DNA of 64,000 nucleotides, from sequence record MZ726793.1, one strand, 5' to 3'. The notes beneath the pieces are model-generated. The model did not search any database. It worked only from the letters and a program-made list of their open reading frames with translations, and had not been told where the DNA came from. Both the position numbers and the translations under genes were made by a program. Below are positions 36,367 to 53,902 of the stretch, piece after piece. This DNA comes from Escherichia phage vB_EcoM_ASO2A. Every line of letters begins with the position of its first letter. The first letter of the stretch is position 1.

Positions 36367-36516
36367 CTATTCGTCGTCTCCTACTCCGTGATCCAACTCG
36401 TTAAACAACAGATGTTCTGGAGAAGTTTCACGTTTTGGTTTCGTTTTCTTTATGTTGGACTTCAGCTCATTTGCCAAAGCACGAGAAAAGATCTTACGTT
36501 TCTGTTTACTTTTCAT
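36367..36516 (-). CDS. small basic protein (49 aa)
   Basis: ORF below track cutoff filling the lysozyme-glutaredoxin gap; weak SD. Confidence 0.3.
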   Translation of the reverse strand: MKSKQKRKIFSRALANELKSNIKKTKPKRETSPEHLLFNELDHGVGDDE

Positions 36517-36521
36517 AATTG

Positions 36522-36782
36522 TTACTCCGCAATTTGAGCCATGAGATCACGCAGTTCGGTAAAACCGCCTACGTATGTTACCTCCCCGTTCACTTCGGAC
36601 AGAATTTGTGGAAATGTGCGTGGAGGAACTCCGGTAAGATCAACAACTGTTTTAGTCATTGATTCTAAATCATAGTCTTGATCAAGACTTAAATATTCAA
36701 ACTGTTTATTGCGCATGGTTAATAGTTGTTTTGACATTTCACAAAATTGACAGTTAGGTTTACCAAAAATTACAAATTCCAT
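36522..36782 (-). CDS. glutaredoxin/thioredoxin-like protein
   Basis: 86 aa; N-terminal CQFC redox motif; next to the rml and nrd genes. Confidence 0.65.
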   Translation of the reverse strand: MEFVIFGKPNCQFCEMSKQLLTMRNKQFEYLSLDQDYDLESMTKTVVDLTGVPPRTFPQILSEVNGEVTYVGGFTELRDLMAQIAE

Positions 36783-37624
36783 TACCTCTCCTTATTAAGT
36801 AATACTGCTAAAGACTGTTCAATACCTTTATTTAAATCTGATTTTGTAAGATAGTGACTGGTTACTAGTTGTGACTTCACCGGACGTGCTGCTGGAGCAT
36901 TATAGGTTGAAGCTGATACCGCCGATATCTTAACAGGTTCTGGCATCTGTGTCAAGATCTTTTCCGCAAACTCCGCCCAAGAAATAAGATGGCTTCCTGC
37001 AAAATGGTAAGTCTTAACAGACCTTGACCAACCTGTTTTTAATACTTCAAAAATAGCTTCTGCTAAATCTGGAGCATATGTTGGACAAGAGAACTGATCA
37101 GCAACAATAATAAAATCACGTTGTCCATCATTATAGCGAGACAACATGGTTTTTAGAAAGTTATTTCCAAATTCGCTATATACCGAGGCTGTTCGAATAA
37201 TATATGCATTTGGGTTAACTCCTCGCACCATTTTTTCACCAAGTTCTTTCGTATACCCATAATTGTTTATTGGGTTAGGTGTAGTATCTTCAAAAATAGG
37301 ATGAGAATAATTAAAAATATAGTCTGTAGAAATATGCACAAAATCAATTTTAAGTTTGCTGCACACTGCCGCAATATTTGCAGGTCCATACGCATTAACA
37401 GCCAAAGCAGTAGCAAAATCATGTTCTGCTTTATCTACAGCCGTATAAGCGGCGCAATTAATAACACCATCTACATAATCTTCAATAATAGCGTTTCGCA
37501 CAGCTTCAAAATTTGTAATATCTACACGTTCTTTAGGATAAATTAAAGATACATTTGAAGGAGCCACTTTACGTAAAGCTTGTCCCAGTTGTCCATTACC
37601 GCCCAATACCAGATATGTTAGCAT
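36782..37624 (-). CDS. rmlD: dTDP-4-dehydrorhamnose reductase
   Basis: 280 aa; N-terminal LVLGGNGQLGQAL Rossmann motif; last gene of the rml operon. Confidence 0.8.
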   Translation of the reverse strand: MLTYLVLGGNGQLGQALRKVAPSNVSLIYPKERVDITNFEAVRNAIIEDYVDGVINCAAYTAVDKAEHDFATALAVNAYGPANIAAVCSKLKIDFVHISTDYIFNYSHPIFEDTTPNPINNYGYTKELGEKMVRGVNPNAYIIRTASVYSEFGNNFLKTMLSRYNDGQRDFIIVADQFSCPTYAPDLAEAIFEVLKTGWSRSVKTYHFAGSHLISWAEFAEKILTQMPEPVKISAVSASTYNAPAARPVKSQLVTSHYLTKSDLNKGIEQSLAVLLNKER

Positions 37625-38184
37625 ACACCCTCGCTACGTAACTGTTGAAAAGATTTAGCCATTGCATCTTTTGTTGATAGAATAGGTTTAAAACCTTCGT
37701 CAAAAATCATATCGAAGCCCCAATCGATCCCTATATCAGGATCATCCCAACGTAAACTTTGTTCACTAGAAGGGTCGTATGGAGTTGTGCATTTGTATTC
37801 AAAGATAGCATCCATACTCAAAACTATAAAACCATGAGCCAAACCAGGCGGAAGCCAAAACTGCGTATGGTGTCGTGCACGAAGAACAACACCGTCCCAA
37901 GCACCGTAAGTTGGACTATCTTTACGTAAATCTACAGCGAAATCCAATACTTCCCCACTTACACAACGAACTAGCTTACCTTGCGGGTTATTTGTTTGAA
38001 AGTGCATTCCTCGCAAAACACCGAAGTTTGATTTAGACATGTTATCTTGAACGAAAGTTTGTCTACCAATAATATCTTCGTATTTTTGTTCATTATATGT
38101 TTCTAGAAAGAAACCACGATCATCTTTATAAACGTCTGGTTTGATAATTACCGCACCTTCAATTTTTGTTTTTTCTACTTTCAT
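37618..38184 (-). CDS. rmlC: dTDP-4-dehydrorhamnose 3,5-epimerase
   Basis: 188 aa from ATG 38184 (ATGA overlap with rmlA stop); cupin-type RmlC motifs DDRGFF and RGMHFQ. Confidence 0.8.
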
Positions 38185-39059
38185 TTTCTCTCCGCTAATT
38201 TGAGTAGGTATTGCCCGTACTCTGTTTTCTTCAGTGAGTTTCCATGATACACCAAAGTCTCTAAAGAAATCCACCCTTTTTTGAAAGCAATTTCTTCCAG
38301 GCACGCAATCTTCAATCCTTGACAGTTCTCAATAGTCTGCACGAATTGACCAGCTTCCATCAGACTGGCGTGTGTTCCTGTGTCAAGCCAAGTAAATCCT
38401 CGTCCGAGAACTTCCACTTGTAACTTCCTGTCTTCTAGGTAGCTGCGATTGATATCAGTGATCTCCAGTTCTCCACGCGCGGAAGGGGTTACTTCTAATG
38501 CACGTTGAATAACAGAGTTATCATAGAAATACAAACCTGTGACAGCATAATCTGATTTAGGATTTTCAGGTTTCTCTTCAATAGAAATAGCTTGACGATT
38601 ACTCCCAAATTCAACCACACCGAATCGTTCAGGATCTTTCACCAAATACCCGAAAATACAAGCTCCGCCCCAAACATCTACCATCTCACTGGCGTTAATC
38701 AGTAGTTTACCAAAGCTTTGTCCGAAGAATAGGTTGTCACCTAAAATAAGAGCAACAGAGTCTTCTCCGATAAAATCTTTACCTATGATGAAAGCTTCCG
38801 CAAGACCTCGTGGCTCGGATTGGATTGCGTAAGTGAGTTTTATCCCAAACATAGACCCATCTCCGAGAAGATACTCAAAGTCTTCCTGATCACCTGGTGT
38901 GGTGATGATTAAAATATCCTTAATGTCAGCCAACATCAATACCGATAAAGGGTAGTAGATCATGGGTTTGTCATACACAGGGAGCAATTGCTTGCTCACA
39001 CTGCGTGTTACCGGATGAAGGCGGGTTCCGCTTCCTCCCGCCAAAATAATACCTTTCAT
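38181..39059 (-). CDS. rmlA: glucose-1-phosphate thymidylyltransferase
   Basis: 292 aa; [18 protein letters not shown]...[17 protein letters not shown] is the RmlA signature. Confidence 0.9.
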
Positions 39060-39067
39060 AACCCTCC

Positions 39068-40060
39068 TTAAATTTTCTCACTCCACCATTGAGGGTTGTT
39101 TAAGTACCATTCAATCGTTGAGTAGAGATCTTGTTCAAATGTAGAGTTTGCACTCCAGCCCAGTTCAGACTCTATCTTAGAAGGATTGATTTCATAACGC
39201 AAGTCATGTCCTTTACGATCTTCAACAAAAGTTATCAAGTTGGAAGAAGGGTAGGTTACTGCTTCTGGATGTACAGTATCCATATAGTCACAAACCATAT
39301 AGATGATCTCCATATTGGTTTTGGGATTACGTGTTCCAACATTATACGTTTGACCTGGTTCTCCACCTGTTGCCACTTGAAGAATAGCTCGCGCATGATC
39401 CTCAACAAAAAGCCAGTCTCGCACCTGGTCGCCTTTACCATACACCGGAATCTCTTTATTCGTCAAGATACTTGTGATGATTTTTGGGATCAGCTTTTCT
39501 GGATGTTGATAAGGCCCAAAGTTATTGGAGCAGTTGGTTATCACAACAGGCAAATCGTAGGTGCGGTGCCAAGCTTTCACAAGATGGTCAGATGCCGCCT
39601 TAGACGCACTGTATGGGCTTGAAGGGGCATAAGCTGTCTCTTCGGTAAAAGGAACGCCAGAGTCTGCCATATCGCCGTACACTTCGTCTGTGGAGACGTG
39701 TACGAACATCTTCAGTTTATTTTTTGGGAGGAGCCTTGCAGCTTCCAATAAATTGTATGTACCAATAATATTGGAGTCAATGAAAACTCGTGGATTCTTG
39801 ATAGAATTATCCACATGACTCTCTGCCGCTAAGTGAATGATGAAATCGGGATTGCACTCTACTACTAAACTTTTGACCTGGGTTTCGTTTGCCAAATCTG
39901 TCATGCTTAGTTTAATGTGAGTGATATCGCCTACATTCTCAATATCTGCTGCATAGCCCATCTTATCAACGACAAAAACTTCGTTATTAGGATCTTGACA
40001 AAGAGAGCGCACCACGGCACTCCCAATAAAACCAAGACCACCTGTTACCAGATAGCGCAT
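39068..40060 (-). CDS. rmlB: dTDP-glucose 4,6-dehydratase
   Basis: 330 aa; [21 protein letters not shown]-binding N-terminus typical of RmlB. Confidence 0.9.
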
Positions 40061-40069
40061 CAGTTCTCC

Positions 40070-40396
40070 TTACCAGACATGTTGAGAAATAATAGTTTCC
40101 GTTTTAATGTTATATTTTTCAAGTAGTTTTGCATAGGCTTCTTTTGCATTCTCATTCAATTGCTCAAGATCTACAGCTATGCTTCCCTCTCCGCCTTCTA
40201 AATCAAGGCCATATATGCAATAAGACTCATCCGCATCGTAGAAAGGAGAGATGCGGCTTAAGTCCAGACCTTCTTGTAAGAACCAGTTAAAATCTCCATC
40301 AAATTCTTCTTCAATTCTAGGATCTTCTCCTACAGCCTCTTCCCATTTATTAAAAGGTGCACCCTGTAACATACGCCATGCAATATCAACTCCCAC
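40070..40396 (-). CDS. hypothetical acidic protein
   Basis: 108-aa ORF. Confidence 0.5.
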   Translation of the reverse strand: MGVDIAWRMLQGAPFNKWEEAVGEDPRIEEEFDGDFNWFLQEGLDLSRISPFYDADESYCIYGLDLEGGEGSIAVDLEQLNENAKEAYAKLLEKYNIKTETIISQHVW

Positions 40397-40532
40397 TATC
40401 TTCCTCCTCTTCTTTTTCTTCTGTATGAACGAAACCTAAGCCGTTACAATTCCAACAAGGAATAAATTGTTCCATACTAACAATAAAATTCCCAGTGCCG
40501 CCGCAGATAGGACAAATACTTACATCATCCAT
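40386..40532 (-). CDS. small zinc-ribbon protein (48 aa)
   Basis: ORF below track cutoff; CPICGG...CWNC. Confidence 0.45.
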   Translation of the reverse strand: MDDVSICPICGGTGNFIVSMEQFIPCWNCNGLGFVHTEEKEEEEDSGS

Positions 40533-40741: not shown

Positions 40742-40928
40742 ACTTGGCTACACCATTAACTATAATGTGACCACAAGACATAACTCCTAGCCAAGGATCG
40801 CCGTTTTTCTTCAGGCGTTTACCGAATACATCACAAAAACCATTCTTCATTTCGGAGGCTTCATAAGAAGCCCCTTTATCAAAAACGTCTTTGAATGTGT
40901 CGATTATACCAACACATCTCAAAATCAT
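40710..40928 (-). CDS. hypothetical protein
   Basis: 72-aa ORF. Confidence 0.45.
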   Translation of the reverse strand: MILRCVGIIDTFKDVFDKGASYEASEMKNGFCDVFGKRLKKNGDPWLGVMSCGHIIVNGVAKFEIIKGEKDD

Positions 40929-42013
40929 TAGAAGTCAAGCTCCTCATCATCAGAGAGATCTTTGTTAGCTGAATTCAATTTGTAATTAGTTAACTGAATC
41001 TCTTGGGCTGCTGACTGAATCAAATCAGGATTCAACCATTTTTCCATCCAAGCTAAAGGACTATGTTTAGGTGCTTTAAACTTGGCTTTCATTTTCAATC
41101 GACGATAAATAGGAGCAGCATTGAAATAAACCCACTGTTTAGACAATTCGGCGTTAAGACCTACAATAAAACGACCTTCACTAAACAGGTAGTCACACCA
41201 CTGTTCCTCTTGTTCAACAACAGTGTCGAGGATCAAAGTCAACTCTTCAATATTGTCTTCGTAAATTTTACGCCAAATTGGGTCATGCATCAATGCATCA
41301 ATTACAGCATAATCCATCTTAACATGCAAGATTTCATCTAGCATAATTTTCTGGATCAGTTTACAAGCCCCAACAAACAGTTGTTGTTCTGCCATAGCAA
41401 AAGTAGCAGAGAAGGAAGATATAAACTGAATACCTTCTAATCCAATCAGGGCTACCATCCCTTTAAGAATCAGCAGTCGAAGTTCATCGTTAGCTTCAAT
41501 CAATCCTAGAGCATACTTATGACCAGCTTCTTCCAACTGACCCATGATATCAGCAATGATACCCATACGATTGAAAATTTTATCATTAATCATAATCTGA
41601 TTGATGACTTCAATTGGATCTGGAGTACATTGACGGATTATTTCAGAATACGTTAACGCATGGAGAACTTCCATTTCACTCTGCTTCATCATCATAGCAC
41701 AGGCTTCATTGTTACTCAAGAATGGAGAGAACAAAGTGATGATTGATTTTGCAAGAGAATCATTTTCCCATTGGAACGATAAGTTTTTAATCATAACATC
41801 ATAGTTGTTTTTAGAACAAGCTACGAAATCTTTACGTGTCTGATCCAGATTAACTTCGTTTTCATCCCAATCTTGTGCTTTTTGAAGTTTGTAGAGTTTG
41901 TGCATTTCAGGGTAAGTCACGTTGATAGAATCAAAAATCCCCAACTGTTCCCCCATGAAAACTGGATATTTACCTGTTTTGTAAGTCTCGTTATGTAAAT
42001 TAATTGCTGCCAT
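40928..42013 (-). CDS. nrdB: ribonucleotide reductase class Ia beta subunit
   Basis: 361 aa; R2 di-iron/ferritin-like architecture; adjacent to nrdA. Confidence 0.85.
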   Translation of the reverse strand: MAAINLHNETYKTGKYPVFMGEQLGIFDSINVTYPEMHKLYKLQKAQDWDENEVNLDQTRKDFVACSKNNYDVMIKNLSFQWENDSLAKSIITLFSPFLSNNEACAMMMKQSEMEVLHALTYSEIIRQCTPDPIEVINQIMINDKIFNRMGIIADIMGQLEEAGHKYALGLIEANDELRLLILKGMVALIGLEGIQFISSFSATFAMAEQQLFVGACKLIQKIMLDEILHVKMDYAVIDALMHDPIWRKIYEDNIEELTLILDTVVEQEEQWCDYLFSEGRFIVGLNAELSKQWVYFNAAPIYRRLKMKAKFKAPKHSPLAWMEKWLNPDLIQSAAQEIQLTNYKLNSANKDLSDDEELDF

Positions 42014-42338
42014 TTAAATCCTCCACTATTTCACAAAAACCTCTTAAGCTTAAAATATCTTCTTCCTCAAAATCATTGCTCCGGTAGAAAGCTTCCAGTG
42101 CTTCCCATACGCTTCTACCAAGTATAACAGTCACTGTTTCTTCACTTCTTGCCCTTGTTATTGCGTAAGCCGTGGCTTCTGGATAAAAAGATTCCCAAAT
42201 CTGCATGTTAGCTATTTCAAGACCGCCAAGATAATGGTGACACCAAGTAGGGGTAAAATCTTCAGGGCGAATCAACAGAGGCTTAAACCCAGGTCGGTAG
42301 ATTGGGGTTACTCCAGGTAAAACTATAATTGTGCTCAT
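42000..42338 (-). CDS. hypothetical protein
   Basis: 112 aa from ATG 42338, downstream of hairpin 42357-42370 and SD GAGGAGG. Confidence 0.5.
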   Translation of the reverse strand: MSTIIVLPGVTPIYRPGFKPLLIRPEDFTPTWCHHYLGGLEIANMQIWESFYPEATAYAITRARSEETVTVILGRSVWEALEAFYRSNDFEEEDILSLRGFCEIVEDLNGSN

Positions 42339-42378
42339 AATCCTCCTCAATAAAAAGGGGCTGAAGCCCCTAGTTTCA

Positions 42379-44619
42379 TCACATTTTGCAAGCTTCACAA
42401 CCACCATCAGAATCTTCTTGTGCTAAAGAGTCTGCTGATTTTGTTCTACTGTTAAGGTAATACAATGACTTGCCACCCAGTCTAGCAAAATTCAGAATAA
42501 ACTGCATCTCAGCTTTCACTGATAAACGTCCACCTACCAATTTAGAATAATCTAGCCAAGAATCACAAGAAATTCCTTGGTCCGTAAACTTGGTAAAGAT
42601 ACCATACATTTCTGCAAGATCTTTAGCCGGAGTGTCCCAGGCAGACTGGTAGAACATTTTCAGTTTTTCATAGTCTGGAACAATAAATAATACACTACCT
42701 TTCTGACTTTGTTTATACATAATAGTATCACGAACAGGATACAGAGAGTTAGTAGTATTGCTTACCAAACTGCTGGACTCATTAGGTGCAATAGCAGCCA
42801 AGACACTGTTACGGATACCACCTTGTTCAATGATTTCAGCACGTAAGCCTTCCCAGTCCATTTTAAGATCAAAATTACCGATACTATCTACTGTTTTAGC
42901 ATAAGTGTCAATTGGTAGCCAACCTTGAGGCCATTTGGTCTTATCGATCCATTCTGCATTACCTTTTTCCTTAGCCAGACGCAGAGAGGCTTTTGCCAAC
43001 CAAAAGTAATGACGTTCTGCAAGTTCATGCATTAATTTTTTAGCATAAGCGTCTGAATAATTTACAAAATTACTTGCCAAATAATGCGCTAAGTTTGTAA
43101 TGCCTACACCAATAGATCTACGTGCTTTAGCAGTTATTTCGTTATGTTTAAATGGATAATCCATTGTTTCAATAACGTTGTCAATTGTCAATACAGTGTA
43201 GTATGCAACATCCTCATATTCTTCAGGTAAGACACGACCAGCAACAATAGAAGATAAGAAGCATAAAGCCAATTCTTGATTTTCTGTATTCTCACCAGTA
43301 AAGAGATCCGGCATACTGTGGAAAGCTTTAGTTGGTAAGAAGATCTCTTGACACAGGTTTGATTGATACACCGTATCCAGGAAAGGTGTATGGTTGTTAA
43401 CGTTGTCAGCAAAGAACATGTAAATACGTCCTGTTTCTGCACGTTGAACAATAATCTCTGTCAGAAGATCACGAGCCTTAACAAATTTTTTCTTAATGCG
43501 ACGACGGCTTACTTTGTCATAAACTGCATCAAACTCTTCTTCACTTTTATACAAAGCTTCATAAAGTTCAGGAGCATCATCACAACTAACTAACATCCAA
43601 TCTTCGTTTTTTGCTGCTCGACGCAAGAACGAACGGTTAACAACAATAGAATAATCCAGTTTGTCTACTCGTTTATCTATAGGTGTTGTTGGATTCTTCA
43701 GTCGAATCAGATCGTCGAAGTCTGGTTCAAGTATGGTAAAGGTAACTGTAGCACTACCTCCACGGCTTGCTTGCTTCGAAGCTCCAACACTATCTTCCAT
43801 CCATTTCAGATACGGAAGAAGACCACCATGAATAATACGATTATTCTTAACACCTTGACCTGTGGCACGAGTTTGAAGATTAACACCAATACCTGCGTTA
43901 TTCAACGTATACTCATGAGCTAAGTAATTAGCAATGGCTAAAGACTCTGCCGTATCGTCTGCACGGAACAAACAACAAGACGCACTTCCTTTGATTGGAG
44001 TTCGTAGAGTTGTCAGATACGGCGATGGCAGATTAATCTTAAGATCGCTAACATAAGTATAAAGTTTTTTAATATCTTCTATACGGCGTTCTTTTGGTTG
44101 GATCTCCATAACCTTCATTGCGATACCAATGAAAAGAAACTGTGGAGACTCATGCACCACATCGTTTACTGCATCTCGAATAAGATATTTATCTACCATC
44201 TGACGTAAAACAGAATAACCATAAGTTAGATTTTTATTATGCTTTACAATCTTACCGATTTCTTTGATCTCTTCATCAGTATAATCCATTTTAGCCCAAT
44301 GTCCACGTTCTACCATATCATGATAAAAGGTATTCAGTGAAGGGATACTGTGGTATCCCCCATGAGCCTGTTTGTAAATCATACCCAGAAGAAGTCTTCC
44401 TGCCATATCACTGTAAGCTTGTGTTTTCTTGTCAATACACGCTGCAATCATTGCTTTATGCAGATCACGTGTAGACACACCGTCATAACACCGCTTCACA
44501 GCTTCTAATTCAATTTCAGACCAGTTTAGTTTACCTGCTGCAAATTCAGACCACTTGCGAAGTTTTTCTGGATTAAACTCCTCTGTCTTACCGTTAGATT
44601 TAGTTACAAAACGAATCAA
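42379..44619 (-). CDS. nrdA: ribonucleotide reductase class Ia alpha subunit
   Basis: 746 aa; NLCQEIFLPT active-site region and C-terminal CxxC tail. Confidence 0.9.
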   Translation of the reverse strand: MIRFVTKSNGKTEEFNPEKLRKWSEFAAGKLNWSEIELEAVKRCYDGVSTRDLHKAMIAACIDKKTQAYSDMAGRLLLGMIYKQAHGGYHSIPSLNTFYHDMVERGHWAKMDYTDEEIKEIGKIVKHNKNLTYGYSVLRQMVDKYLIRDAVNDVVHESPQFLFIGIAMKVMEIQPKERRIEDIKKLYTYVSDLKINLPSPYLTTLRTPIKGSASCCLFRADDTAESLAIANYLAHEYTLNNAGIGVNLQTRATGQGVKNNRIIHGGLLPYLKWMEDSVGASKQASRGGSATVTFTILEPDFDDLIRLKNPTTPIDKRVDKLDYSIVVNRSFLRRAAKNEDWMLVSCDDAPELYEALYKSEEEFDAVYDKVSRRRIKKKFVKARDLLTEIIVQRAETGRIYMFFADNVNNHTPFLDTVYQSNLCQEIFLPTKAFHSMPDLFTGENTENQELALCFLSSIVAGRVLPEEYEDVAYYTVLTIDNVIETMDYPFKHNEITAKARRSIGVGITNLAHYLASNFVNYSDAYAKKLMHELAERHYFWLAKASLRLAKEKGNAEWIDKTKWPQGWLPIDTYAKTVDSIGNFDLKMDWEGLRAEIIEQGGIRNSVLAAIAPNESSSLVSNTTNSLYPVRDTIMYKQSQKGSVLFIVPDYEKLKMFYQSAWDTPAKDLAEMYGIFTKFTDQGISCDSWLDYSKLVGGRLSVKAEMQFILNFARLGGKSLYYLNSRTKSADSLAQEDSDGGCEACKM

Positions 44620-45395: not shown

Positions 45396-46394
45396 TCACC
45401 ATTTAGTATGATTTGTTAAAAGTTGACGATGTTGAATCCAGCCTTTGAAATTGCCAGACCAAAACTTACCATTACGATCTACATGGGTAATACCTGGTTC
45501 CCAAGAGTTAAAATCCCAAGGAGCATTGATAAACAAATCTTCAAAACAGTTCTCTCCATATTGTTCGCATGTTTCTTGAATTGGAGTGGCTTGATGTTCA
45601 AACGGAGAAGCATGAACCTTGCGCCCAGTCAGCAAACGACCATAGATATCTAAAGCTTTATCTTTAGTTGCATTTAAACGACGATAGCTAACCTGTGCAC
45701 AACATGAAGCTGAAATAGCTTTGGCTTCTTCCAAGGTAAGCACAACAACTTCTCCAGATTCATCTTGAACGTAGTATCCACCAAAAACAAAATGATCGTC
45801 ACCTTCTGTGCCAATATTATCGTAGAAATGGTCTACATAAGGTGTGTGCCATTGCCCTGGTTTCAGCACTTCTGGTGTAGATCCTTCATACTCTTTGTGC
45901 ATCTCTTTAGCCAAAGCTTCGATAGTAGGATCGGCTTCTTTGTCATCACGTAGCCACCAGAAATTTTCATATTCTGTTGCTGTCAGAACTGTTTTAATTC
46001 GTTGGAAAGGTTCCAGAAGACGGTTTGCAACTTGTTTGTGGTACCCTGCCAAAGAGAATTCTTCTGCAAAACGTGCTGCACTAAGCGCGGCAAGATCCCA
46101 CCACTCTTGAGCAGTATAACCTGCATCAATAAGAGCGTCATGATCAACACCTTTATCCTGCATACCAGGTTGGTTAGCCCCAAAACGATAAGGACGAGCA
46201 GGTTGATTTCGCACCATTTCAATCAGTGTTTTAACAGGTATAGCACGGCTAGAAGCAGCATTACGACTGAACAGGCGGTGAGTCATCAATTCTGAATGAA
46301 TAATACGTGGATATTCTAGTTCAAAAGTTACAATCTCTTTTCCGTCTTCAGTGATGGAATGCGCAATAATACTAGCCGAAATCTGTTTTGTCAT
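45396..46394 (-). CDS. thyX: flavin-dependent thymidylate synthase
   Basis: 332 aa; ThyX RHR...S.R signature in MTHRLFSRNAASSRAIP. Confidence 0.8.
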   Translation of the reverse strand: MTKQISASIIAHSITEDGKEIVTFELEYPRIIHSELMTHRLFSRNAASSRAIPVKTLIEMVRNQPARPYRFGANQPGMQDKGVDHDALIDAGYTAQEWWDLAALSAARFAEEFSLAGYHKQVANRLLEPFQRIKTVLTATEYENFWWLRDDKEADPTIEALAKEMHKEYEGSTPEVLKPGQWHTPYVDHFYDNIGTEGDDHFVFGGYYVQDESGEVVVLTLEEAKAISASCCAQVSYRRLNATKDKALDIYGRLLTGRKVHASPFEHQATPIQETCEQYGENCFEDLFINAPWDFNSWEPGITHVDRNGKFWSGNFKGWIQHRQLLTNHTKW

Positions 46395-46403: not shown

Positions 46404-47012
46404 TTAGTTTTTAAAATTGTTCAAAGTGTTAAAAACATCCAAACATGTTAGCCACTGATCTTCTAAACCTGTGATCACAACATTTGGTTTTTTCTTTAGT
46501 TCTTCTAGATGGTTATCTTTATAAGGCGTATTAAAATATATTTTAACCACTTCATCTGGAAAATATAGTAGGTTATCAGCCCTGTCATCTATTGCTATAT
46601 CACAAGGCAATAAGTATTTTTCTTTCGTAGCAAAAAAGCCGTTACCAGATCCTTTGCTAAAATCAATCGTATCTAACGTTCTTAAAACATGCTTATGTTT
46701 AGAACTTAAGTGACCACCTTTTGTCACACTTGCGATCAAAAGATTGCTACCTTTCCTTGAAACATACTTTAAGAAATCTGGCATACCTGGAACAAAACCC
46801 ATTGTATCATAGAGATGAGGATTATCCAGAAATCCGTAAGGATCTATATTGAACTCCTCCCTGAAACCAGGAAAGTAGTTGGTAAGATCATAGTCTGCAT
46901 TTTTTGTGAATGTGTCTATCTTAACACCAAGTCCACTAATCTTATTCAACCATTCTAACCAAGCAACATCTAATGGAGCCACAACTAAATCCCAATCACA
47001 TACTATCTGCAT
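46404..47012 (-). CDS. HAD-family 5'(3')-deoxyribonucleotidase-like protein
   Basis: 202 aa; N-terminal DWD (HAD motif I); nucleotide-metabolism neighbourhood. Confidence 0.5.
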   Translation of the reverse strand: MQIVCDWDLVVAPLDVAWLEWLNKISGLGVKIDTFTKNADYDLTNYFPGFREEFNIDPYGFLDNPHLYDTMGFVPGMPDFLKYVSRKGSNLLIASVTKGGHLSSKHKHVLRTLDTIDFSKGSGNGFFATKEKYLLPCDIAIDDRADNLLYFPDEVVKIYFNTPYKDNHLEELKKKPNVVITGLEDQWLTCLDVFNTLNNFKN

Positions 47013-47048
47013 AAAACCTCCTCTCTCTTTTAGTATAGTTATCTTATA

Positions 47049-47624
47049 CTAACTTTCAATTTCCTGCAATAGGATTTTGACTATTTGTTTGCGGCGTTTC
47101 GCTACTGTGCTTTCAGGTTCTATTTTACGCTTCTTCAACCAAGCTTTATCTTTCTTAGCTCTACACAAAGCTATTGCTTCTTTTTCAGCTTTCGCTTCTT
47201 CAAAAGATATACCTTGTTTATCTGCATAAGCAAGAATAGAGTTGCACAATTTACAAACCATTCGCAAATCTTCTTCTTTCACATAGATCAAACGGAAAAC
47301 AAAAAGGGGAATATCCTCAAAACATTGAAGTTGTTTTGCTGCGTGAATATGATCCACTTGGAAGTCTTTCATTCCTCCTCTGTGTCCACATATTTCGCAC
47401 TCACAATTCCAAACTTGTTTTGGTTTTCCAGTTTTCTTGTCTATCATCACATTGCCGTCTTTATCTACACGATCAACTTTAAAACGCCTTGCATTGATAA
47501 CCTTAATTTTATTAGGGTGTCTCATCCATGCTTTTCTAAAACATCCCCTAAGATAAGTATAAAATTCAGCTTGTGTTTTCCAGGGTGTTCCTTCACCCCA
47601 CATTATTTTTGGTTCACCTGCCAA
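47049..47624 (-). CDS. HNH / endonuclease VII-like nuclease
   Basis: 191 aa; CECEICGHRG...DFQVDHIHA zinc-binding HNH-like core. Confidence 0.55.
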   Translation of the reverse strand: MAGEPKIMWGEGTPWKTQAEFYTYLRGCFRKAWMRHPNKIKVINARRFKVDRVDKDGNVMIDKKTGKPKQVWNCECEICGHRGGMKDFQVDHIHAAKQLQCFEDIPLFVFRLIYVKEEDLRMVCKLCNSILAYADKQGISFEEAKAEKEAIALCRAKKDKAWLKKRKIEPESTVAKRRKQIVKILLQEIES

Positions 47625-47667
47625 TATTGCTCACCTTTTTAGCTGTATATTCCCCTGGTGGGATATT

Positions 47668-47703
47668 GTGTTTAAAAAACAAAAGGCGGTCTAACCCCGC
47701 CTT
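47668..47703 (-). terminator. Rho-independent terminator
   Basis: On minus strand AAGGCGG-GGUUAGA-CCGCCUU followed by a U-run. Confidence 0.5.
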
Positions 47704-47791
47704 GCACATTGTTTCTGGAATAGTCAAAGTTAGTAAAAGTTTATCACCTTTTCGGTTGAATATTTTATAAACTTCTCCTGCTCCATATTGT

Positions 47792-48193
47792 TTAGTATTG
47801 CTCGCCACTAATACGTTCCTTAAGTTGTTTAATAGCTTCGATTGCATCTAAATAAGAAGAGTTATACATGTGTTTCAGTGCTACTCGTACTAAAGGATCT
47901 TTTGTGAAGAAATCAATAAGAAGCATAGCTTGATCATGTTTAGCTGCATTTGTCATAGATGGATAATTTTCACGAACCATATACGTGCTATTTTGCATAA
48001 GGGTTCTTTCTAGTTCAATACAATGAATAGCTTTATCTAGGTTAATCTGACGTTCACCTTTAATACGTGTTGCGTATTTTGCCAATTTGCAAAAACAAGG
48101 TGTGCCACCAACCAAATAAGCTAGTTCAATAGGTTGCATTGCCATTTTTGTGTAGTGATCACCGTCAACCTGATTATCAAAAGCATTAGACAT
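47792..48193 (-). CDS. DUF3310-like protein
   Basis: 133 aa; GDHY...IE motif near the N-terminus, as in the phage DUF3310 family. Confidence 0.45.
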   Translation of the reverse strand: MSNAFDNQVDGDHYTKMAMQPIELAYLVGGTPCFCKLAKYATRIKGERQINLDKAIHCIELERTLMQNSTYMVRENYPSMTNAAKHDQAMLLIDFFTKDPLVRVALKHMYNSSYLDAIEAIKQLKERISGEQY

Positions 48194-48413
48194 AATTTTC
48201 CTCCTGAATTCCTACTGCACCTTCTTCTGGGTAGTCTGCATAATAAGCTACCCTACCTTGATAGATAACATCACCATCATTATTGTAGATTGCTGTATCT
48301 TCTTGAATTGTTATTTCAACATCAAGTAAATCTGGGTCTTTCTCGATGGTATAGTTCAAACCTAACATTTCAAACAGTTCGAAAATTTCGTTACCTGTTA
48401 ATGTAATGCTCAT
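48186..48413 (-). CDS. hypothetical protein
   Basis: 75 aa from ATG 48413; SD AAGGAGG. Confidence 0.5.
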   Translation of the reverse strand: MSITLTGNEIFELFEMLGLNYTIEKDPDLLDVEITIQEDTAIYNNDGDVIYQGRVAYYADYPEEGAVGIQEENYV

Positions 48414-48499
48414 ATTTCCTCCTTTTATTGTGGTTAGCAGAGTATACACTAATATAAAATTTTTGTCAATAAAAAAGGGAGCAATAAGCTCCCTGATTA

Positions 48500-49459
48500 T
48501 TAGATTCCAATAATAGTTGCTGCTCGTTTATCCTTGGATCTGGTGTTTGCTCTACTACGTGACAAACCGCCGCAAGATTCACAACGAATGATATCGAAAG
48601 AACTTACCGCAGTGTGGTATTGTTTACCAGTAACAACGTGAACGTGATCACTGCCACAACGAGAACAACGGACCTTCTCATCTGGGTAATAAGCGGATAA
48701 GTTAGGATGCTGTGGAATCCACGGAAGGATTTTCATATACAAATCACGGAGTGAAACAACATCACCATCATTGTAAATCTGCATACGTTCAAAAGCATCA
48801 CGATCACCTTCACAACATGCTTTCCATAAAGGGAATCCCTCGTTATCCAGTTTTTCACTTTCTGTTTCGAAATATGCTCCCATTTCTTTAAGGGAGTTGG
48901 AAGGAAGTGCAAATTGTTTCTTAGCTGCCTTCAATGTATCAACAACTACATAATTAGAAGGAGGAGCCATATCGTGATATGCAAATCGTTGGTTAATGTA
49001 TGCACGGTCAAACTTATACCCGTTGTGTGCCACAACTACATCTGCCTCATTCAGAAGGTTCCAAAGATCTTGGCAAAGCTCCCAATCATCTGTATGATCA
49101 ATATCAAAAAGAGGATAAGAAGACAAGTTCTTACCTTCCACTTCACCAGTATACAGGTCAGCAGAAGAGTAAGATAACAAATAACCCCTACGAATTACTT
49201 GATCTGGAGAAATGAAGGCTTTGAATCGACGGAAAGTATATGCAATCTCTGGTGCAGTTTCAACATCAATAATTTTAATAACGGGTTGTTTCTTTTTAAC
49301 TGGCTCTTGTTTACTTGCTCCAAATCGTGCAAGGAAATCGTTCACTGTGCTTTTTCTTGTTGGACTACCTAAAACAATTGCTGCAATATTACGAGAAGAC
49401 ATACCCTCTGCACTCATACTAAGGATATCTGCTTTCTGCTCTTCTGTTAATCTGCTCAC
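48500..49459 (-). CDS. DnaQ-like (DEDD) 3'-5' exonuclease
   Basis: 319 aa; Exo I motif IIDVETAP, VVAHNGYKFD, C-terminal Cys cluster. Confidence 0.6.
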   Translation of the reverse strand: MSRLTEEQKADILSMSAEGMSSRNIAAIVLGSPTRKSTVNDFLARFGASKQEPVKKKQPVIKIIDVETAPEIAYTFRRFKAFISPDQVIRRGYLLSYSSADLYTGEVEGKNLSSYPLFDIDHTDDWELCQDLWNLLNEADVVVAHNGYKFDRAYINQRFAYHDMAPPSNYVVVDTLKAAKKQFALPSNSLKEMGAYFETESEKLDNEGFPLWKACCEGDRDAFERMQIYNDGDVVSLRDLYMKILPWIPQHPNLSAYYPDEKVRCSRCGSDHVHVVTGKQYHTAVSSFDIIRCESCGGLSRSRANTRSKDKRAATIIGI

Positions 49460-50574
49460 TCTGCCTCCTGTTGTGAGATGTATGACTGAAGCATACTCTC
49501 AAATGTTGTATCGTCATTATCCCAGCGTTTCATGTATACCAACTGGAAAATTGTTTCTATCCATTCATCTGTTGTCATATGGACTTCTTCTCCATCCCAA
49601 GAAGTAAAATTAACACCATCTGGGAACCATGAGTAGTAAGTATCTTTAACTGTTTGGAAAAGTTCTGCTTGAGTTTTACAAGCTGAAAGAAGATTAAAAC
49701 AAGTAATATCTCCGAACTTAATATCAAAATCTTGATAAGGTCGGATACTATCTGTTTTATCTCCCATTAGCATCTGATATGCTAACCAGTAACTGCCCCA
49801 ACCTTTAACTTCTTTCTTTTTACCTTTATCTACGATCCATATATCGCCAATAGACTCGTCAATAAGAATTATATCTGGATTTTTAAATACTCCATCCTCT
49901 TTGTAGAAATTAAAAAGGATACTAGGAGTATGTAAACTATCTTTATCTATAGATACTACGATATAAGAAAATTTACCCGTCCTTTTATAATCTTTATAAC
50001 CTTGGAAACCATACTTCTCTAACTCATCATCAGCTTCTATTACAGTAACAACATCACCATTGTGGAACTCCACAAGATAATCTTTGGTTTCTGAAAGCTG
50101 AAGTGGTTTGATATCTAATCGTTCAGATTTATATTCTACAGGCATTTTGAAGGCGTGTCTGAAAGTTTTTCCTACGCCAATAACTCCGCAATATTTTTCT
50201 AAACGTAGATGTTTTAGAATACCTAAGACTTTTGTTTTAGCTGCTTGGAAGGTGTGTCCGATATCTTCTGGCGGGTATTGCTTATCAATGATTTCGAACT
50301 CTTCCTTTGTGAAGGGACGTTTGTTTTTGGAGGATCTTTCTGCATTTGTATCTCCTAGCCAACCTCCAATTTTAGTCTTGCTTTTACCCCAAAACTCTGT
50401 CTTATTTTTAAATTCCTTTTGAGCACCTGAAGGGATGTGCTTCGCAATGATTGTTCTTTTCTCTAATGCAGACGCTGCTTGGAAAGCGATCTGATCATAA
50501 TCAATTGCAGCTATTGTTTCTTCATTGACATATAAATGAAGATCTTCAGGTTTAATTAAAATATAACCGCTAAT
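49456..50574 (-). CDS. FEN / RNase H-like 5'-3' exonuclease (start codon uncertain)
   Basis: Frame open from 50586 to 49456; IDYDQIA and GDKTDSI resemble T4 RNase H; no in-frame ATG/GTG/TTG before 50145; ATT at 50574 follows AGGGGG. Confidence 0.5.
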   Translation of the reverse strand: MSGYILIKPEDLHLYVNEETIAAIDYDQIAFQAASALEKRTIIAKHIPSGAQKEFKNKTEFWGKSKTKIGGWLGDTNAERSSKNKRPFTKEEFEIIDKQYPPEDIGHTFQAAKTKVLGILKHLRLEKYCGVIGVGKTFRHAFKMPVEYKSERLDIKPLQLSETKDYLVEFHNGDVVTVIEADDELEKYGFQGYKDYKRTGKFSYIVVSIDKDSLHTPSILFNFYKEDGVFKNPDIILIDESIGDIWIVDKGKKKEVKGWGSYWLAYQMLMGDKTDSIRPYQDFDIKFGDITCFNLLSACKTQAELFQTVKDTYYSWFPDGVNFTSWDGEEVHMTTDEWIETIFQLVYMKRWDNDDTTFESMLQSYISQQEAE

Positions 50575-50586
50575 ATTTCCCCCTAG

Positions 50587-50796
50587 TTATTCATCGTCAT
50601 CCTCTGTTGAGAATGTTTTAGTATACGGACATTGACGACTTTTCGGGATTGCTATAACTTCATCTTGGTTAGCGTTAGAATAGTAGCAATATTTTGTATT
50701 GCCATTAACTTCAGAATCAGACAAGATTAAAGTAATTTGACCTGCTGCTACTGTGAAACTAAAAGCTAAAAGAACGACTGTCAGAATCTTTTTCAT
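50587..50796 (-). CDS. small secreted protein with signal peptide
   Basis: 69 aa; MKKILTVVLLAFSFTVAAG signal-like N-terminus; SD AGGAGG. Confidence 0.55.
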   Translation of the reverse strand: MKKILTVVLLAFSFTVAAGQITLILSDSEVNGNTKYCYYSNANQDEVIAIPKSRQCPYTKTFSTEDDDE

Positions 50797-50802
50797 AACG
50801 CC

Positions 50803-50835
50803 TCCTAAAAAGCCTACCTCATTAAGTAGGTAGGC
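50803..50835 (-). terminator. Rho-independent terminator (partial)
   Basis: On minus strand GCCUACC hairpin followed by UUUUU, just upstream of the next SD. Confidence 0.45.
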
Positions 50836-50868
50836 ATAATATCATAACTAATCCCGCAAGTCAAGAAC

Positions 50869-51747
50869 TTATTTAAGGATTGTTGCTTTGGTTAAATCTT
50901 CCATCAGACCTCGAATCTCATTGAAGCACAGAAGGACTGAAGCTTCAATACTGCCTTCTTCGTCTGCAAAATATTTCGGAAAACGTAGTTTAGAAAGTTT
51001 AAACTCTTTATCCACTACGAAATCTACAACACCGTCATATTCAAGACCGATTGCAACAACATCTTTACCATCTTCTTTTAGTTCGACAGCTTTAGACTCG
51101 TATAGGGATTCTTTACTCCAAACAACAACGCCCTCGCTATCCTCCATTTTGATATAATTTCCGAGAGTAATACGATCTGCTTCGTGATTCTCCAGCAATT
51201 CACCAAAACCTTTTACAATAGCTTCTTCATGCACACTAAAACCTACCGAAGGGAAAGTCCCCAGAACGGAACGGAGGAAAGAAGTAATCTCTTCTGCAAC
51301 CTTTTTACTTCCATTAAGAACATAAAGAAGATTCGTAGTTTTATCCAAGACAACATAGTTAAAGAAATCTTCAGGTTCTGTTTCAGGCAATAGTGCAAAT
51401 TCAATATCTTCCTTCATTGCTTTTACTACTTCTTTATCGACATAAAACTCTTTACCTTCGCTCTCCATGTCCTGACGCATTTCTTCTAGACGTTCATTCA
51501 GAATACGTTTAACTTTCTTTTTATCTACCTTCTTCACAGATTGACCTACATTAAGCAGTTCAAGATCTGAAAACTCTTTTACAAATTTAGAGTCATCTTC
51601 GAAACGAACAAGACCGATAGTGTGTGACTGGGAGCCTTCTGCTGTTACAAATTCCAGAGGAATATCTGTAATGTTGTTAAGGGATGCTACAGAAGCATTG
51701 TCACCAACAACCATAGGCAGAGCGGATTTAAAAGATTTTACAAACAT
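50869..51747 (-). CDS. RdgC-like recombination-associated protein
   Basis: 292 aa; central LLP...VVLD...NLLYVLNGSKKVAEEI...FLRSVLGTFP aligns with the E. coli RdgC core. Confidence 0.5.
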   Translation of the reverse strand: MFVKSFKSALPMVVGDNASVASLNNITDIPLEFVTAEGSQSHTIGLVRFEDDSKFVKEFSDLELLNVGQSVKKVDKKKVKRILNERLEEMRQDMESEGKEFYVDKEVVKAMKEDIEFALLPETEPEDFFNYVVLDKTTNLLYVLNGSKKVAEEITSFLRSVLGTFPSVGFSVHEEAIVKGFGELLENHEADRITLGNYIKMEDSEGVVVWSKESLYESKAVELKEDGKDVVAIGLEYDGVVDFVVDKEFKLSKLRFPKYFADEEGSIEASVLLCFNEIRGLMEDLTKATILK

Positions 51748-51803
51748 GTTTCCTCCTATTTAATACATCTCACATTACCGCCCGTAAAGGGCGGCTTACA
51801 ACA

Positions 51804-52529
51804 TTACTTGTTAATAATACCTGCAATATTAGGTTTGACAAAGGTCGATGGTTTCATGATCTTACCTTTATCATCAAAGAACACATACACTTTCTGTTTT
51901 TCATTATAAACAGCATGAACACCAGTGTATGCCCCTTCTGGACGATTGGCATTTCGTTCTTCAATTGCAGCGCATTCTTGTGCAATGGCTGAATCGATAT
52001 CCGAAGTTTTCCAAGTTTTCAGCAACTGTTGTTTAGTTGGATACTTGGAATCATTACTTTTCAATACCTCTTTAATAACTTTCTTTTCTGGATATTTTGA
52101 ACGGATTAGAGTGTCACGAGACATACGCATAATACCAGCAGCCATTAGTGCCATTTGAACTGGCTCTGTAAATGTTTGTTCCAAAGCATCAAAATCAGTA
52201 TACACAGTTGGAGTAAAAACATCGCCTACAGCATAGTCCAAGAAATTCATCGTATGTTCTTCACCAAAGAACATGTAAGTCAGATAACTGGATACTACAA
52301 AAATATCCGCTGCTGCATCCAAGAGTTCTACATGATCGTTTACTTTCGCGGCTGTTTCATACTCTTTAAGCTCTTCACGAACGAACCCGATTTGGGACAT
52401 AAATAACTCTTGAGTGAATTCAGGTTGTTCACCACCTCGTGCTTTGGCATTCCAATCAATTACGTGCTTTGCTGCATTTTTGAAAAATTCAGTATCGAAT
52501 TTAATATCTTTAAAAAAATTCTCGATCAT
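51804..52529 (-). CDS. hypothetical protein
   Basis: 241-aa ORF. Confidence 0.5.
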   Translation of the reverse strand: MIENFFKDIKFDTEFFKNAAKHVIDWNAKARGGEQPEFTQELFMSQIGFVREELKEYETAAKVNDHVELLDAAADIFVVSSYLTYMFFGEEHTMNFLDYAVGDVFTPTVYTDFDALEQTFTEPVQMALMAAGIMRMSRDTLIRSKYPEKKVIKEVLKSNDSKYPTKQQLLKTWKTSDIDSAIAQECAAIEERNANRPEGAYTGVHAVYNEKQKVYVFFDDKGKIMKPSTFVKPNIAGIINK

Positions 52530-52538
52530 TATAACTCC

Positions 52539-52721
52539 TTATTTAAAATAGCTTTCTAGAAAGTTGCTAATATTTACTACAGACTCACCCATGTAAATCC
52601 CTGCGAAACCGAAAACAAGCATACGTGGAATATTGAAATACCATTTATCTGCCGGAAAAGATGCCAGAATTACAATAGCAATTGCTATCAACATCATAAG
52701 AATTGTTGCTAAAATTATCAT
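52539..52721 (-). CDS. small membrane protein
   Basis: 60 aa; two hydrophobic segments. Confidence 0.45.
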   Translation of the reverse strand: MIILATILMMLIAIAIVILASFPADKWYFNIPRMLVFGFAGIYMGESVVNISNFLESYFK

Positions 52722-52774
52722 AAAAATGCCTCCAGGTATTTTTCACAATGATAAGCTAAGAACATTTTTCCTCC

Positions 52775-53902
52775 TTATTCTGCTGGTTCCCAAGTGCCTG
52801 GGATCATTTCTCGAATACGAACACCAACAGGTTTTGTTGGAATACCTTCATCTGAAAATTCTTCATACTCTATTTCAACGAACTGATTAATCAAGGTAGA
52901 AGCATTCTCTGCTTTACGATAATTGATAGTCTCATGAGCATCTTTACGCATTAAGAATTCGACTACTTTACCATTTTCCATCTCGCCTGTCAACACTCCA
53001 TCACCATTTTTATCACTTTTTGAATTTATTACTTTAACTTCAAGCGTATGACGAGGCTTACGTTTAATAACATCATAAGAACGTTTATCAAATTCGTAAA
53101 CTCCGTGAGCATTACGATATACTACACCTTCAGCTTTCTCAAGTAAAGCTTTTTCATAGAAAGCATCAAACTGTTCTTGGTTTTCAATATACTCTGTATG
53201 AACTACACAAATAAGCTCATCAAGACCATAATCCTCCACTACTGCCTTAAGAGCAGTAAGAACATCAACACGTTTTTCAAACGGTAGATCTGGAACTGGA
53301 ATATCGTATACGTAATAGTTCAGCAAAGGTGTATTTGCATTATGCTTCTTCCAGGCACTGTTAATTTGTTGTAGACTAAGGACACCTAACCCAGCAAACA
53401 CTTCACCATCAAGAGGATGACCAACAACTTCACTAATAAAGTTTGGAATACCTTTCCAATGAGGTGGCAGGTTATACACTTCCCCAGCTTTTGATAAACA
53501 CTCCCCTTTCATGTTAATCATAGAACGTAACCCGTTCAGTTTGTATTGTGCATAACCAGGGAACACAACCCTTTCAGGATAATCTTTATAATCCTGGCAT
53601 TTCATTGGTGTGGAAGGAACATGGTTTTCAGCTTCTTCTTTTGTTTTATAATAGCCATTCTTTAACTGTTTTGTCCATTTGGCAAAAGCTTCAAGTTCAG
53701 CTTGTTCTTCCGGTGTTGTTTCATTGGAACGACCAATGTTTTTTGCTTCTGCTGTATAAGATTTTTCTGTGATTTTTCCACCTACCCTTCCATGAGCTAC
53801 AGTAACAACTGCACCATCTGTATACACTGTCCACTGTTTAAGTTTTCCTTTTGAATCTTTACCATACAGCGTTTGATTTGTTTGTTGCATTAGTCCTCCC
53901 AT
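52775..53902 (-). CDS. ATP-dependent DNA ligase
   Basis: 375 aa; nucleotidyltransferase motifs KLNGLR, LDGEVF, EGVVYR and a downstream KxK. Confidence 0.65.
   Translation of the reverse strand: MGGLMQQTNQTLYGKDSKGKLKQWTVYTDGAVVTVAHGRVGGKITEKSYTAEAKNIGRSNETTPEEQAELEAFAKWTKQLKNGYYKTKEEAENHVPSTPMKCQDYKDYPERVVFPGYAQYKLNGLRSMINMKGECLSKAGEVYNLPPHWKGIPNFISEVVGHPLDGEVFAGLGVLSLQQINSAWKKHNANTPLLNYYVYDIPVPDLPFEKRVDVLTALKAVVEDYGLDELICVVHTEYIENQEQFDAFYEKALLEKAEGVVYRNAHGVYEFDKRSYDVIKRKPRHTLEVKVINSKSDKNGDGVLTGEMENGKVVEFLMRKDAHETINYRKAENASTLINQFVEIEYEEFSDEGIPTKPVGVRIREMIPGTWEPAE

Follow-up and report, generated by a model that had tools for sequence, protein, structure and literature searches.

What use does a phage of Escherichia make of a complete pathway to deoxythymidine diphosphate (dTDP)-L-rhamnose that lies among its genes for nucleotide metabolism? 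The question is raised by Escherichia phage vB_EcoM_ASO2A, of which a stretch of 64,000 nt (MZ726793.1), referred to here as the window, was analyzed; positions are window coordinates unless another record is named. A first-pass annotation had placed the complete pathway (rmlB, rmlA, rmlC and rmlD) at 36782-40060, and had offered DNA glycosylation, virion glycosylation, host surface remodelling and use of the deoxythymidine triphosphate (dTTP) pool as its possible uses. The analyses presented here support the identity of the pathway and resolve it into a constant rmlC-rmlD core and an optional rmlB-rmlA cassette. As to its use, they count against DNA glycosylation and do not decide among the other three.

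The four enzymes and earlier records of them

The genes are as follows.

39068-40060, minus strand: rmlB, dTDP-glucose 4,6-dehydratase, 330 aa; transcribed first, opens the rmlBA cassette
38181-39059, minus strand: rmlA, glucose-1-phosphate thymidylyltransferase, 292 aa; second gene of the cassette
37618-38184, minus strand: rmlC, dTDP-4-dehydrorhamnose 3,5-epimerase, 188 aa from the ATG at 38184; core
36782-37624, minus strand: rmlD, dTDP-4-dehydrorhamnose reductase, 280 aa; core

The mechanical list of open reading frames (ORFs) begins rmlC at an upstream GTG (38304) and not at the ATG at 38184. The description of these as four overlapping genes holds for rmlA/rmlC (4 nt) and rmlC/rmlD (7 nt) but not for rmlB and rmlA, which are 8 nt apart; rmlD also overlaps the downstream glutaredoxin gene (grx) by 1 nt. 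A scan for promoters and terminators gave counts near those of shuffled sequence and no convincing terminator within the rml block, and the four genes, which are contiguous and co-oriented, appear to form one transcription unit with their neighbours.

The encoded proteins are almost certainly bona fide RmlB, RmlA, RmlC and RmlD with intact catalytic motifs. Identity was judged with the NCBIfam equivalog profiles and their curated cut-offs, with which Pfam agrees. RmlB scores 431.7 bits with TIGR01181 (cut-off 365.1), RmlA 464.5 bits with TIGR01207 (cut-off 360.65; residues 2-289 on 1-285 of the 286-position profile) and RmlC 225 bits with TIGR01221 (cut-off 155.75), while RmlD clears the cut-off of TIGR01214 by a narrow margin (237.6 against 224.05 bits). 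The proteins thus match Rml equivalogs, and not other subfamilies of short-chain dehydrogenases/reductases (SDR), cupins or nucleotidyltransferases, and the complete pathway claimed for 36782-40060 is borne out. Solved structures align end to end with all four: the top matches are Salmonella enterica RmlB (1g1a, E 1.5e-110), S. enterica RmlC (1dzr, E 4e-56) and Bacillus anthracis RmlD (3sc6, E 7e-44), and RmlA aligns with Aneurinibacillus RmlA (4ho0, E 4.8e-125) and Escherichia coli RffH (1mc3, E 2e-118).

The N-terminal signatures that the first-pass annotation had seen in RmlA and RmlB are both present, as GGSGTRL at residue 8 of RmlA (the G-G-x-G-T-R-L nucleotide-binding motif) and GLGFIG in RmlB (the Rossmann GxGxxG). 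RmlB also keeps TDEVYG, with the catalytic Thr-Asp-Glu, and YSASK (YxxxK). In RmlC the motifs RGMHFQ, GKLV, FEYK and TKDA line up with their counterparts in S. enterica RmlC 1dzr, and the His, Lys, Tyr and Asp on which catalysis by the cupin epimerase depends are all found. RmlD retains GGNGQLG, STDY and YGYTK (the SDR Ser/Thr and YxxxK triad), and is nearer to the RmlD of Firmicutes (3sc6, 1vl0) than to that of Salmonella (1kbz). The bacterial rfbBDAC/rmlBDAC and rffG/rffH genes encode the same four enzyme families with the same chemistry; the E. coli genes differ in gene order and reach ~64% nucleotide identity at best. Unlike bacterial rfb, the phage rml genes have no linked O-antigen glycosyltransferases or wzx/wzy and sit in a nucleotide-metabolism operon.

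The closest record to the block is Escherichia phage PNJ1809-36 (99.8% nucleotide identity), and identity to phAPEC8 (JX561091 / NC_020079) is 99.6% over 36500-40400. In phAPEC8 the rmlBACD genes are gp166-gp169, annotated as the four dTDP-rhamnose enzymes in the same order and with the same flanks. Judged by its sequence, the window is another isolate of the phAPEC8 phage type (Phapecoctavirus, Stephanstirmvirinae). Both the literature and GenBank already record the pathway, and the first-pass observation as stated is a correct rediscovery, since the genes have been annotated since the phAPEC8 record and discussed in print (PMC7552041, PMC8594841). The annotation in phAPEC8-type phages dates from 2012 and the print discussion from 2020, when Olsen et al. 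called the presence of a complete pathway within the region for DNA metabolism "peculiar" and speculated on the glycosylation of hydroxymethylated nucleotides (PMC7552041), a DNA-glycosylation hypothesis repeated in PMC10844046. According to the BASEL report (PMC8594841), such phages possess a "putative dTDP glycosylation machinery" and are nevertheless "exceptionally susceptible" to systems of restriction-modification. A literature search found no experimental work on the function of these phage rml genes. What is added here comprises natural variants with and without rmlBA, the constancy of the rmlCD core, a defined cluster of partner genes, and a possible account of why rmlCD alone would suffice in any enterobacterial host.

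Constant rmlC-rmlD core and exchangeable rmlB-rmlA cassette

Throughout Stephanstirmvirinae the rml genes occupy a single conserved locus; the order nrdB, small ORFs, rml, grx, lysozyme and phoH is kept in phi92, ESCO37, the Klebsiella phage KP2025 and phiWec179. The rmlBACD genes of phi92 and other Justusliebigvirus phages (gp067-gp064) resemble those of the window in gene order, in the nrdB-grx locus and in catalytic motifs, but differ in having one extra small ORF before rmlB and in amino-acid identity (55-72%). The flanking core genes of the window and phi92 are 56-85% identical, and within rml the proportion of non-synonymous differences (pN, 0.21-0.30) is far below that of synonymous differences (pS, 0.65-0.82, saturated). 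Because the divergence of the Rml proteins lies within the range of their flanking genes and pN is so far below pS, the data fit vertical retention of rml over a long time under purifying selection.

Within this setting, rmlC-rmlD is a constant core and rmlB-rmlA a discrete, optional cassette that has been exchanged between phage lineages. DNA of rmlC-rmlD was detected in 70 phage records and DNA of rmlB-rmlA in 47, with rmlC found in every one of the matched Phapecoctavirus-type records (70/70). At the protein level, with at least 95% identity, 64 records have RmlC and 46 have RmlA, from which it follows that ~28% of Phapecoctavirus-type genomes are rmlCD-only. The KP2025/FKP3 lineage of Klebsiella phages is likewise rmlCD-only at the same locus, and ESCO37 has been reported to be without rmlA and rmlB (PMC10269720). 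In phages without the cassette, the 108-aa ORF that precedes rmlB in the window directly precedes rmlC, which begins 9 nt past it. The junction in ESCO37, TAAGGAGAGAAAATG, falls on a GGAGA ribosome-binding site, and in the window the cassette amounts to the 1,876 bp between two copies of this site.

40065-40069, minus strand: GGAGA ribosome-binding site before rmlB; upstream end of the cassette
38189-38193, minus strand: GGAGA ribosome-binding site before rmlC; downstream end of the cassette

Strong constraint persists where the cassette is absent: rmlC of the window and of the rmlCD-only ESCO37 differ at 15 synonymous sites and 1 non-synonymous site.

Movement of the cassette between lineages is indicated by sharp steps in identity to phiWec179. 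Against this phage RmlB and RmlA are 94.2% and 97.3% identical, whereas the products of the genes touching the cassette are far more divergent (gp165 53.7%, RmlC 64.3%, RmlD 65.8%). At the nucleotide level identity rises from ~61% to ~89% at the start of rmlB and falls from ~92% to ~72% at the rmlA/rmlC junction, and these steps share their end points with the presence/absence polymorphism of rmlBA. The GC content at third codon positions (GC3) is ~0.40 for rmlBA (0.405 for rmlB), against 0.22-0.26 for rmlC and rmlD and 0.27-0.35 for the neighbours; the Wec-type background is 0.34-0.46, and in phi92 the GC3 of rmlBA equals that of its neighbours. Since the GC3 of rmlBA fits the Wec-type background and differs from that of its Phapecoctavirus neighbours, the data suggest that the cassette was transferred from Wec-type phages into Phapecoctavirus, the direction being deduced from composition. 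In a neighbor-joining tree, all phage RmlA sequences form one clade in only 125 of 200 bootstraps. Exchange with Wec-type phages is likely a better explanation of the anomalous composition of rmlBA than an independent bacterial origin.

The host offers a possible reason why the core can stand by itself. RffH and RffG of the enterobacterial common antigen (ECA) pathway make dTDP-4-keto-6-deoxy-D-glucose, as do RmlA and RmlB. Every one of the 5,426 E. coli genomes searched gave a match to rffG/rffH with an rmlA-rmlB query, the median being one locus per genome; a DNA search with rfbC/rfbD detected only 204 E. coli genomes, these sequences being too diverged for a count. As every E. coli carries rffG/rffH, RmlC and RmlD alone could finish the pathway in any host, and a host without the rml genes of rfb misses exactly the RmlC and RmlD steps, which would explain a constant core with an optional booster. 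On this view selection seems to favour the final sugar nucleotide, or else the removal of the intermediate, and not dTDP-glucose.

Glycosyltransferases and candidate uses of the sugar

The first-pass annotation had noted that no glycosyltransferase is recognizable nearby. This is true of the window, where a Pfam scan of 107 further ORFs (at least 70 aa) returned none, but not of the phage type as a whole: four consecutive glycosyltransferase genes, gp071-gp074, lie at 109618-112765 of phAPEC8, ~70 kb from rml and outside the window. Two are of GT-A and two of GT4-type GT-B fold, and gp073 and gp074 are paralogous. The AlphaFold model of gp074 (pLDDT 93.3) is a GT4-type GT-B with BshA, PglA, MshA, PimA, GtfC and SdgB as best Foldseek matches. 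That of gp072 (pLDDT 88.9) is a GT-A, with conserved FIFDDD (DxD) and YGxED, whose best matches are STIV A197, vaccinia H3 and TarP, with RmlT matched weakly; gp071 is a small GT-A-like protein. Sequence searches of gp071, gp072 and gp074 against solved structures returned nothing meaningful, and an assignment of the acceptor from glycosyltransferase homology was rejected, as only generic GT-A and GT4 folds were returned. None of the four has a hydrophobic segment (maximum 19-residue Kyte-Doolittle mean at most 1.65).

The genes for gp072 and gp074 share their distribution with RmlC: they occur in all Phapecoctavirus, Wec-type, Justusliebigvirus and KP2025/FKP3-type phages and in no Vequintavirus; ESCO37, although rmlCD-only, retains the glycosyltransferase cluster. 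This co-inheritance suggests a functional link, and in the unrelated Synechococcus cyanophage S-B05 rml-type genes likewise adjoin a glycosyltransferase. We propose that the rml genes may give the phage a host-independent supply of dTDP-L-rhamnose for its own glycosyltransferase cluster, acting on an acceptor other than DNA, a reading that we hold at even chances. According to this proposal, phage-owned enzymes would make dTDP-L-rhamnose in the infected cell regardless of the O-antigen genotype of the host. RmlC and RmlD, the essential core, would tap the host ECA intermediate, and RmlA and RmlB would serve as an optional, mobile booster of flux. With dTDP-rhamnose as donor, the four soluble glycosyltransferases (phAPEC8 gp071-gp074) would then assemble a glycan containing rhamnose, either on a protein of the virion or on a glycoconjugate of the envelope. 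The narrower claim, that virion proteins of Stephanstirmvirinae carry such a glycan by way of their own dTDP-rhamnose and four-glycosyltransferase cluster, is put forward tentatively and we would sooner doubt than accept it.

Several observations weigh against this proposal. The co-occurrence of rml and the glycosyltransferases could come from shared ancestry alone, and no lineage was found that keeps either without the other. Neither fold is specific for dTDP-rhamnose; the nearest solved GT4 enzymes use uridine diphosphate (UDP)-, guanosine diphosphate (GDP)- or adenosine diphosphate (ADP)-sugars, and the similarity of gp072 to RmlT, a rhamnosyltransferase, is weak. A homologous trio of gp071, gp072 and gp074 occurs in Serratia, on a prophage contig of only 16.8 kb where rml genes are not seen. 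Ordinary C-termini with no Ser/Thr-rich tail are seen on the major capsid, decoration and tube proteins of phAPEC8, and the tail of the portal protein is modestly Ser/Thr-rich. Finally, as RmlD clears its cut-off narrowly, the C4-epimeric product, 6-deoxy-L-talose, may be conceivable; sequence separates RmlD from its talose-forming homologs without certainty.

The Serratia trio is found in Serratia sp. M24T3 (AJHJ01000054, 5589-7670 of the stretch examined), where identities are 41% for gp071, 36% for gp072 and 39% for gp074. It sits in the late region of an HK97-type prophage, between the lysis cassette and HNH/terminase (packaging) genes. The occurrence of the trio in an unrelated prophage implies that the module is portable and, if the proposal is true, gp071/gp072/gp074 would be a portable three-enzyme module used by temperate phages as well.

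The best comparison for glycosylated virions is with mycobacteriophage Che8 (gp108-gp110; Freeman et al. 2023, as described in citing papers, e.g., PMC12363180), which by that account likewise encodes, for the lytic cycle, several soluble glycosyltransferases. Both gp072 and Che8 gp108 have a GT-A domain with a DxD motif (23% identity, E 4e-4), and a tblastn search matched 327 mycobacteriophages. No similarity was detected between gp072 and Che8 gp109 (E 0.41) or gp110, the essential capsid glycosyltransferase (E 2.2). A link to mycobacteriophage virion glycosylation was therefore rejected, the match being confined to the GT-A domain of Che8 gp108 and not extending to gp110. Two further differences are that the glycosylated capsid and tail tube of mycobacteriophages reportedly carry Ser/Thr-rich C-terminal tails and those of phAPEC8 do not, and that the annotated right arm of Che8 has no nucleotide-sugar pathway genes while phAPEC8-type phages have rml.

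These questions have a practical side. Coliphages of the phAPEC8 and phi92 types have a broad host range and are frequently put forward for therapy and biocontrol, and they devote ~3.3 kb to the sugar pathway and ~3.1 kb to glycosyltransferases. If the product decorates virions, it would constitute the first virion-glycosylation system described for phages of Gram-negative bacteria in the literature searchable here, and recognition by antibodies and pharmacokinetics could be affected, as reported for mycobacteriophages. If instead the envelope of the infected cell is remodelled, this would be a new kind of receptor-masking strategy.

Such remodelling could also come about with no dedicated phage acceptor, an alternative that we regard as a minority possibility. 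RmlC and RmlD would draw off dTDP-4-keto-6-deoxyglucose, the precursor at the branch point to Fuc4NAc, a sugar of the ECA, and dTDP-rhamnose may in addition feed host rhamnosyltransferases, for example WbbL or WaaS, giving altered ECA or lipopolysaccharide (LPS), for instance to block superinfection or to keep progeny off debris. It is in keeping with this view that the conserved unit is rmlCD alone, which acts exactly at the ECA branch point, and that rffG/rffH is present in all E. coli; the LPS core of K-12 can reportedly carry rhamnose (Klein et al. 2011, as cited in PMC12548472), which we also count in its favour. The receptors of relatives are surface glycans and the LPS core (PMC8594841, PMC11990801). 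However, most genomes carry rmlBA as well, so that the supply of the shared precursor would be raised and not depleted, and the co-inherited four-glycosyltransferase cluster would be left unexplained. The glycosyltransferases lack membrane segments, and the Pfam families of Gtr-type O-antigen modification (GtrA flippase, GtrB, GtrC) were not seen in the scans of window or phAPEC8 ORFs.

T-even phages provide the model for glycosylation of DNA: a deoxycytidine monophosphate (dCMP) hydroxymethylase and alpha- and beta-glucosyltransferases glucosylate the DNA, with host UDP-glucose as donor. By analogy, rhamnose would be moved from dTDP-rhamnose onto hydroxymethylated bases of the phage DNA, as in the glucosyl-hydroxymethylcytosine of T4, which is the speculation of Olsen et al. 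(2020) that has since been repeated (PMC7552041, PMC10844046). The resemblance lies in sugar-nucleotide-dependent modification genes amid DNA-metabolism genes, rml being placed in a DNA-metabolism block between grx and nrdAB/thyX. Moreover, gp072 is weakly similar to TET-associated glycosyltransferases (TAGT; PF20691, E 1e-3, under the cut-off) over ~37 residues of the nucleotide-sugar-binding region, and matches the PHROG for T-even beta-glucosyl-HMC alpha-glucosyltransferase (E 7.6e-6). Against these points, a fold search with gp072 gives generic GT-A proteins, with no DNA glycosyltransferase among the matches listed. No ThyA-type hydroxymethylase (PF00303) and no Tet_JBP domain was found in the 107 window ORFs or in 55 phAPEC8 ORFs (107000-147737), a hydroxymethylase, TET or JBP protein is annotated nowhere in the remaining phAPEC8 regions, and the only thymidylate-synthase-type enzyme found is ThyX. 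Unlike T-even phages, these phages are sensitive to restriction, as reported in the literature (PMC8594841), and the donor would be a phage-made dTDP-deoxyhexose. DNA glycosylation is thus unlikely, and we would assign it only a small chance.

A slighter chance still is given to a role in the thymidine pool. Because dTDP-L-rhamnose is an allosteric feedback inhibitor of RmlA-type enzymes, its accumulation would shut off host RffH and RfbA and spare dTTP for phage DNA; alternatively, the pathway would buffer dTTP. Such a role needs no glycosyltransferase, and it accords with the embedding of rml among thyX, nrdAB and grx, with which it is apparently co-transcribed, no convincing terminator lying inside the block. 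In the jumbo phage PAU of Sphingomonas (JQ362498, 135221-140302), too, rmlB-rmlC-rmlA lies two genes downstream of a thymidylate synthase, an rmlD not being annotated. Both PAU and S-B05 have rmlB and rmlC, with or without rmlA and rmlD; compared with the window, RmlC is ~41% identical and gene sets and orders are different, and these are independent acquisitions. On the other side, established biochemistry has it that glycosyl transfer releases dTDP, which is recycled, so that host use of dTDP-sugars is no net drain on dTTP. Further, rmlBA itself uses dTTP, a four-step route to one particular sugar exceeds the needs of a sink or regulator, and the conserved glycosyltransferase cluster would be left without a rationale for its donor supply.

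The remaining alternative, that the block is host DNA in a chimeric assembly, on which the first-pass annotation would have fallen, or a recent capture from E. coli without phage function, is rejected as having practically no chance, because no E. coli genome (0/5,426) covers at least 80% of the block, the best match being the rfb genes in the order rfbB-D-A-C (63.6% identity over 45% of its length), because the block keeps its locus and synteny in more than 100 phage genomes that were sequenced independently, and because its GC content (0.405) is near that of the window (0.387) and the nearest bacterial RmlA proteins (Vibrio, Pseudoalteromonas) are only ~71% identical, sister phage genera being at 72-74%.

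Neighbouring genes and other features

The first-pass annotation had located rml between a glutaredoxin-like gene and nrdB/nrdA, and this arrangement is confirmed by the neighbouring features.

36522-36782, minus strand: glutaredoxin (grx), 86 aa; PF00462, E 1.8e-9
40070-40396, minus strand: 108-aa ORF, homolog of phAPEC8 gp165, directly upstream of rmlB
40928-42013, minus strand: nrdB, from the ORF and the annotation of the 99.6%-identical phAPEC8 record
42000-42407, minus strand: 135-aa ORF between nrdA and nrdB, from the ORF list
42379-44619, minus strand: nrdA, with nrdB encoding the aerobic ribonucleotide reductase, from the ORF and the phAPEC8 annotation
45396-46394, minus strand: ThyX-type thymidylate synthase, 332 aa (long), named via the phAPEC8 annotation "putative thymidylate synthase"

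Glutaredoxin is the conserved downstream neighbour in every lineage looked at (phi92, ESCO37, KP2025, phiWec179). Small ORFs separate rmlB from nrdB, among them the 108-aa ORF at 40070-40396, which holds the same position in these four phages and had no match in Pfam and NCBIfam profile searches. The site between nrdA and nrdB is variable: EF1-1 and phi92 have an HNH homing endonuclease there, and the annotation of ESCO37 shows no gene. On the minus strand, a hairpin resembling a terminator is located at 42371-42356. The match of the thymidylate synthase to PF02511 (Thy1) is weak (E 5.4e-8) and the batch scan gives no ORF for it, its coordinates being assigned via the phAPEC8 annotation. ThyX is also common to rV5 and PVP-SE1, both of which are without rml, which argues that it has no specific tie to the rhamnose genes.

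The glycosyltransferases of phAPEC8 have neighbours of their own. In NC_020079 at 113,000-125,000, beside the cluster, are TerD, a vWA-TerF-like protein, TelA, TerC, a ComF-like phosphoribosyltransferase and HAD hydrolases; NADAR and Macro domain proteins are among the ORFs scanned in the same part of the genome, their positions not being given by the batch scan. This set is presumably akin to the bacterial systems that have been predicted under the name "Ter-linked nucleoside-like metabolite". The order TerC, TelA, vWA-TerF and TerD by the glycosyltransferases is kept in a divergent phage contig from a soil metagenome (453-8061 of the stretch examined).

Some host labels among the matching records look doubtful. 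Five records of "Campylobacter phage" with C. jejuni as listed host (MG065650 B15, MG065645 A145, MG065656 C3 and others) match these coliphage genes: the DNA of B15 is 98% identical to the window, and A145 and C3 carry Justusliebigvirus-type versions (RmlC 62%, gp074 76% identity). Single "Acinetobacter", "Pseudomonas" and "Dompiswa" records match in the same way.

Elsewhere in the window, one of 69 ORFs at 87-33371 matches the Acb2/Tad1 hairpin domain (PF24729, E 1.9e-19) of anti-CBASS/anti-Thoeris signal sponges, and the same half encodes a SIR2-family protein, a resolvase and three DUF72xx families. At 47000-58000, the matches of a batch Pfam search include a T4-type RNA ligase, a cREC_REC domain for the processing of cyclic phosphates, RdgC, a deoxynucleotidase of the NT5C type and a MazG-like PRA-PH domain, which suggest RNA-repair and nucleotide-sanitizing functions.

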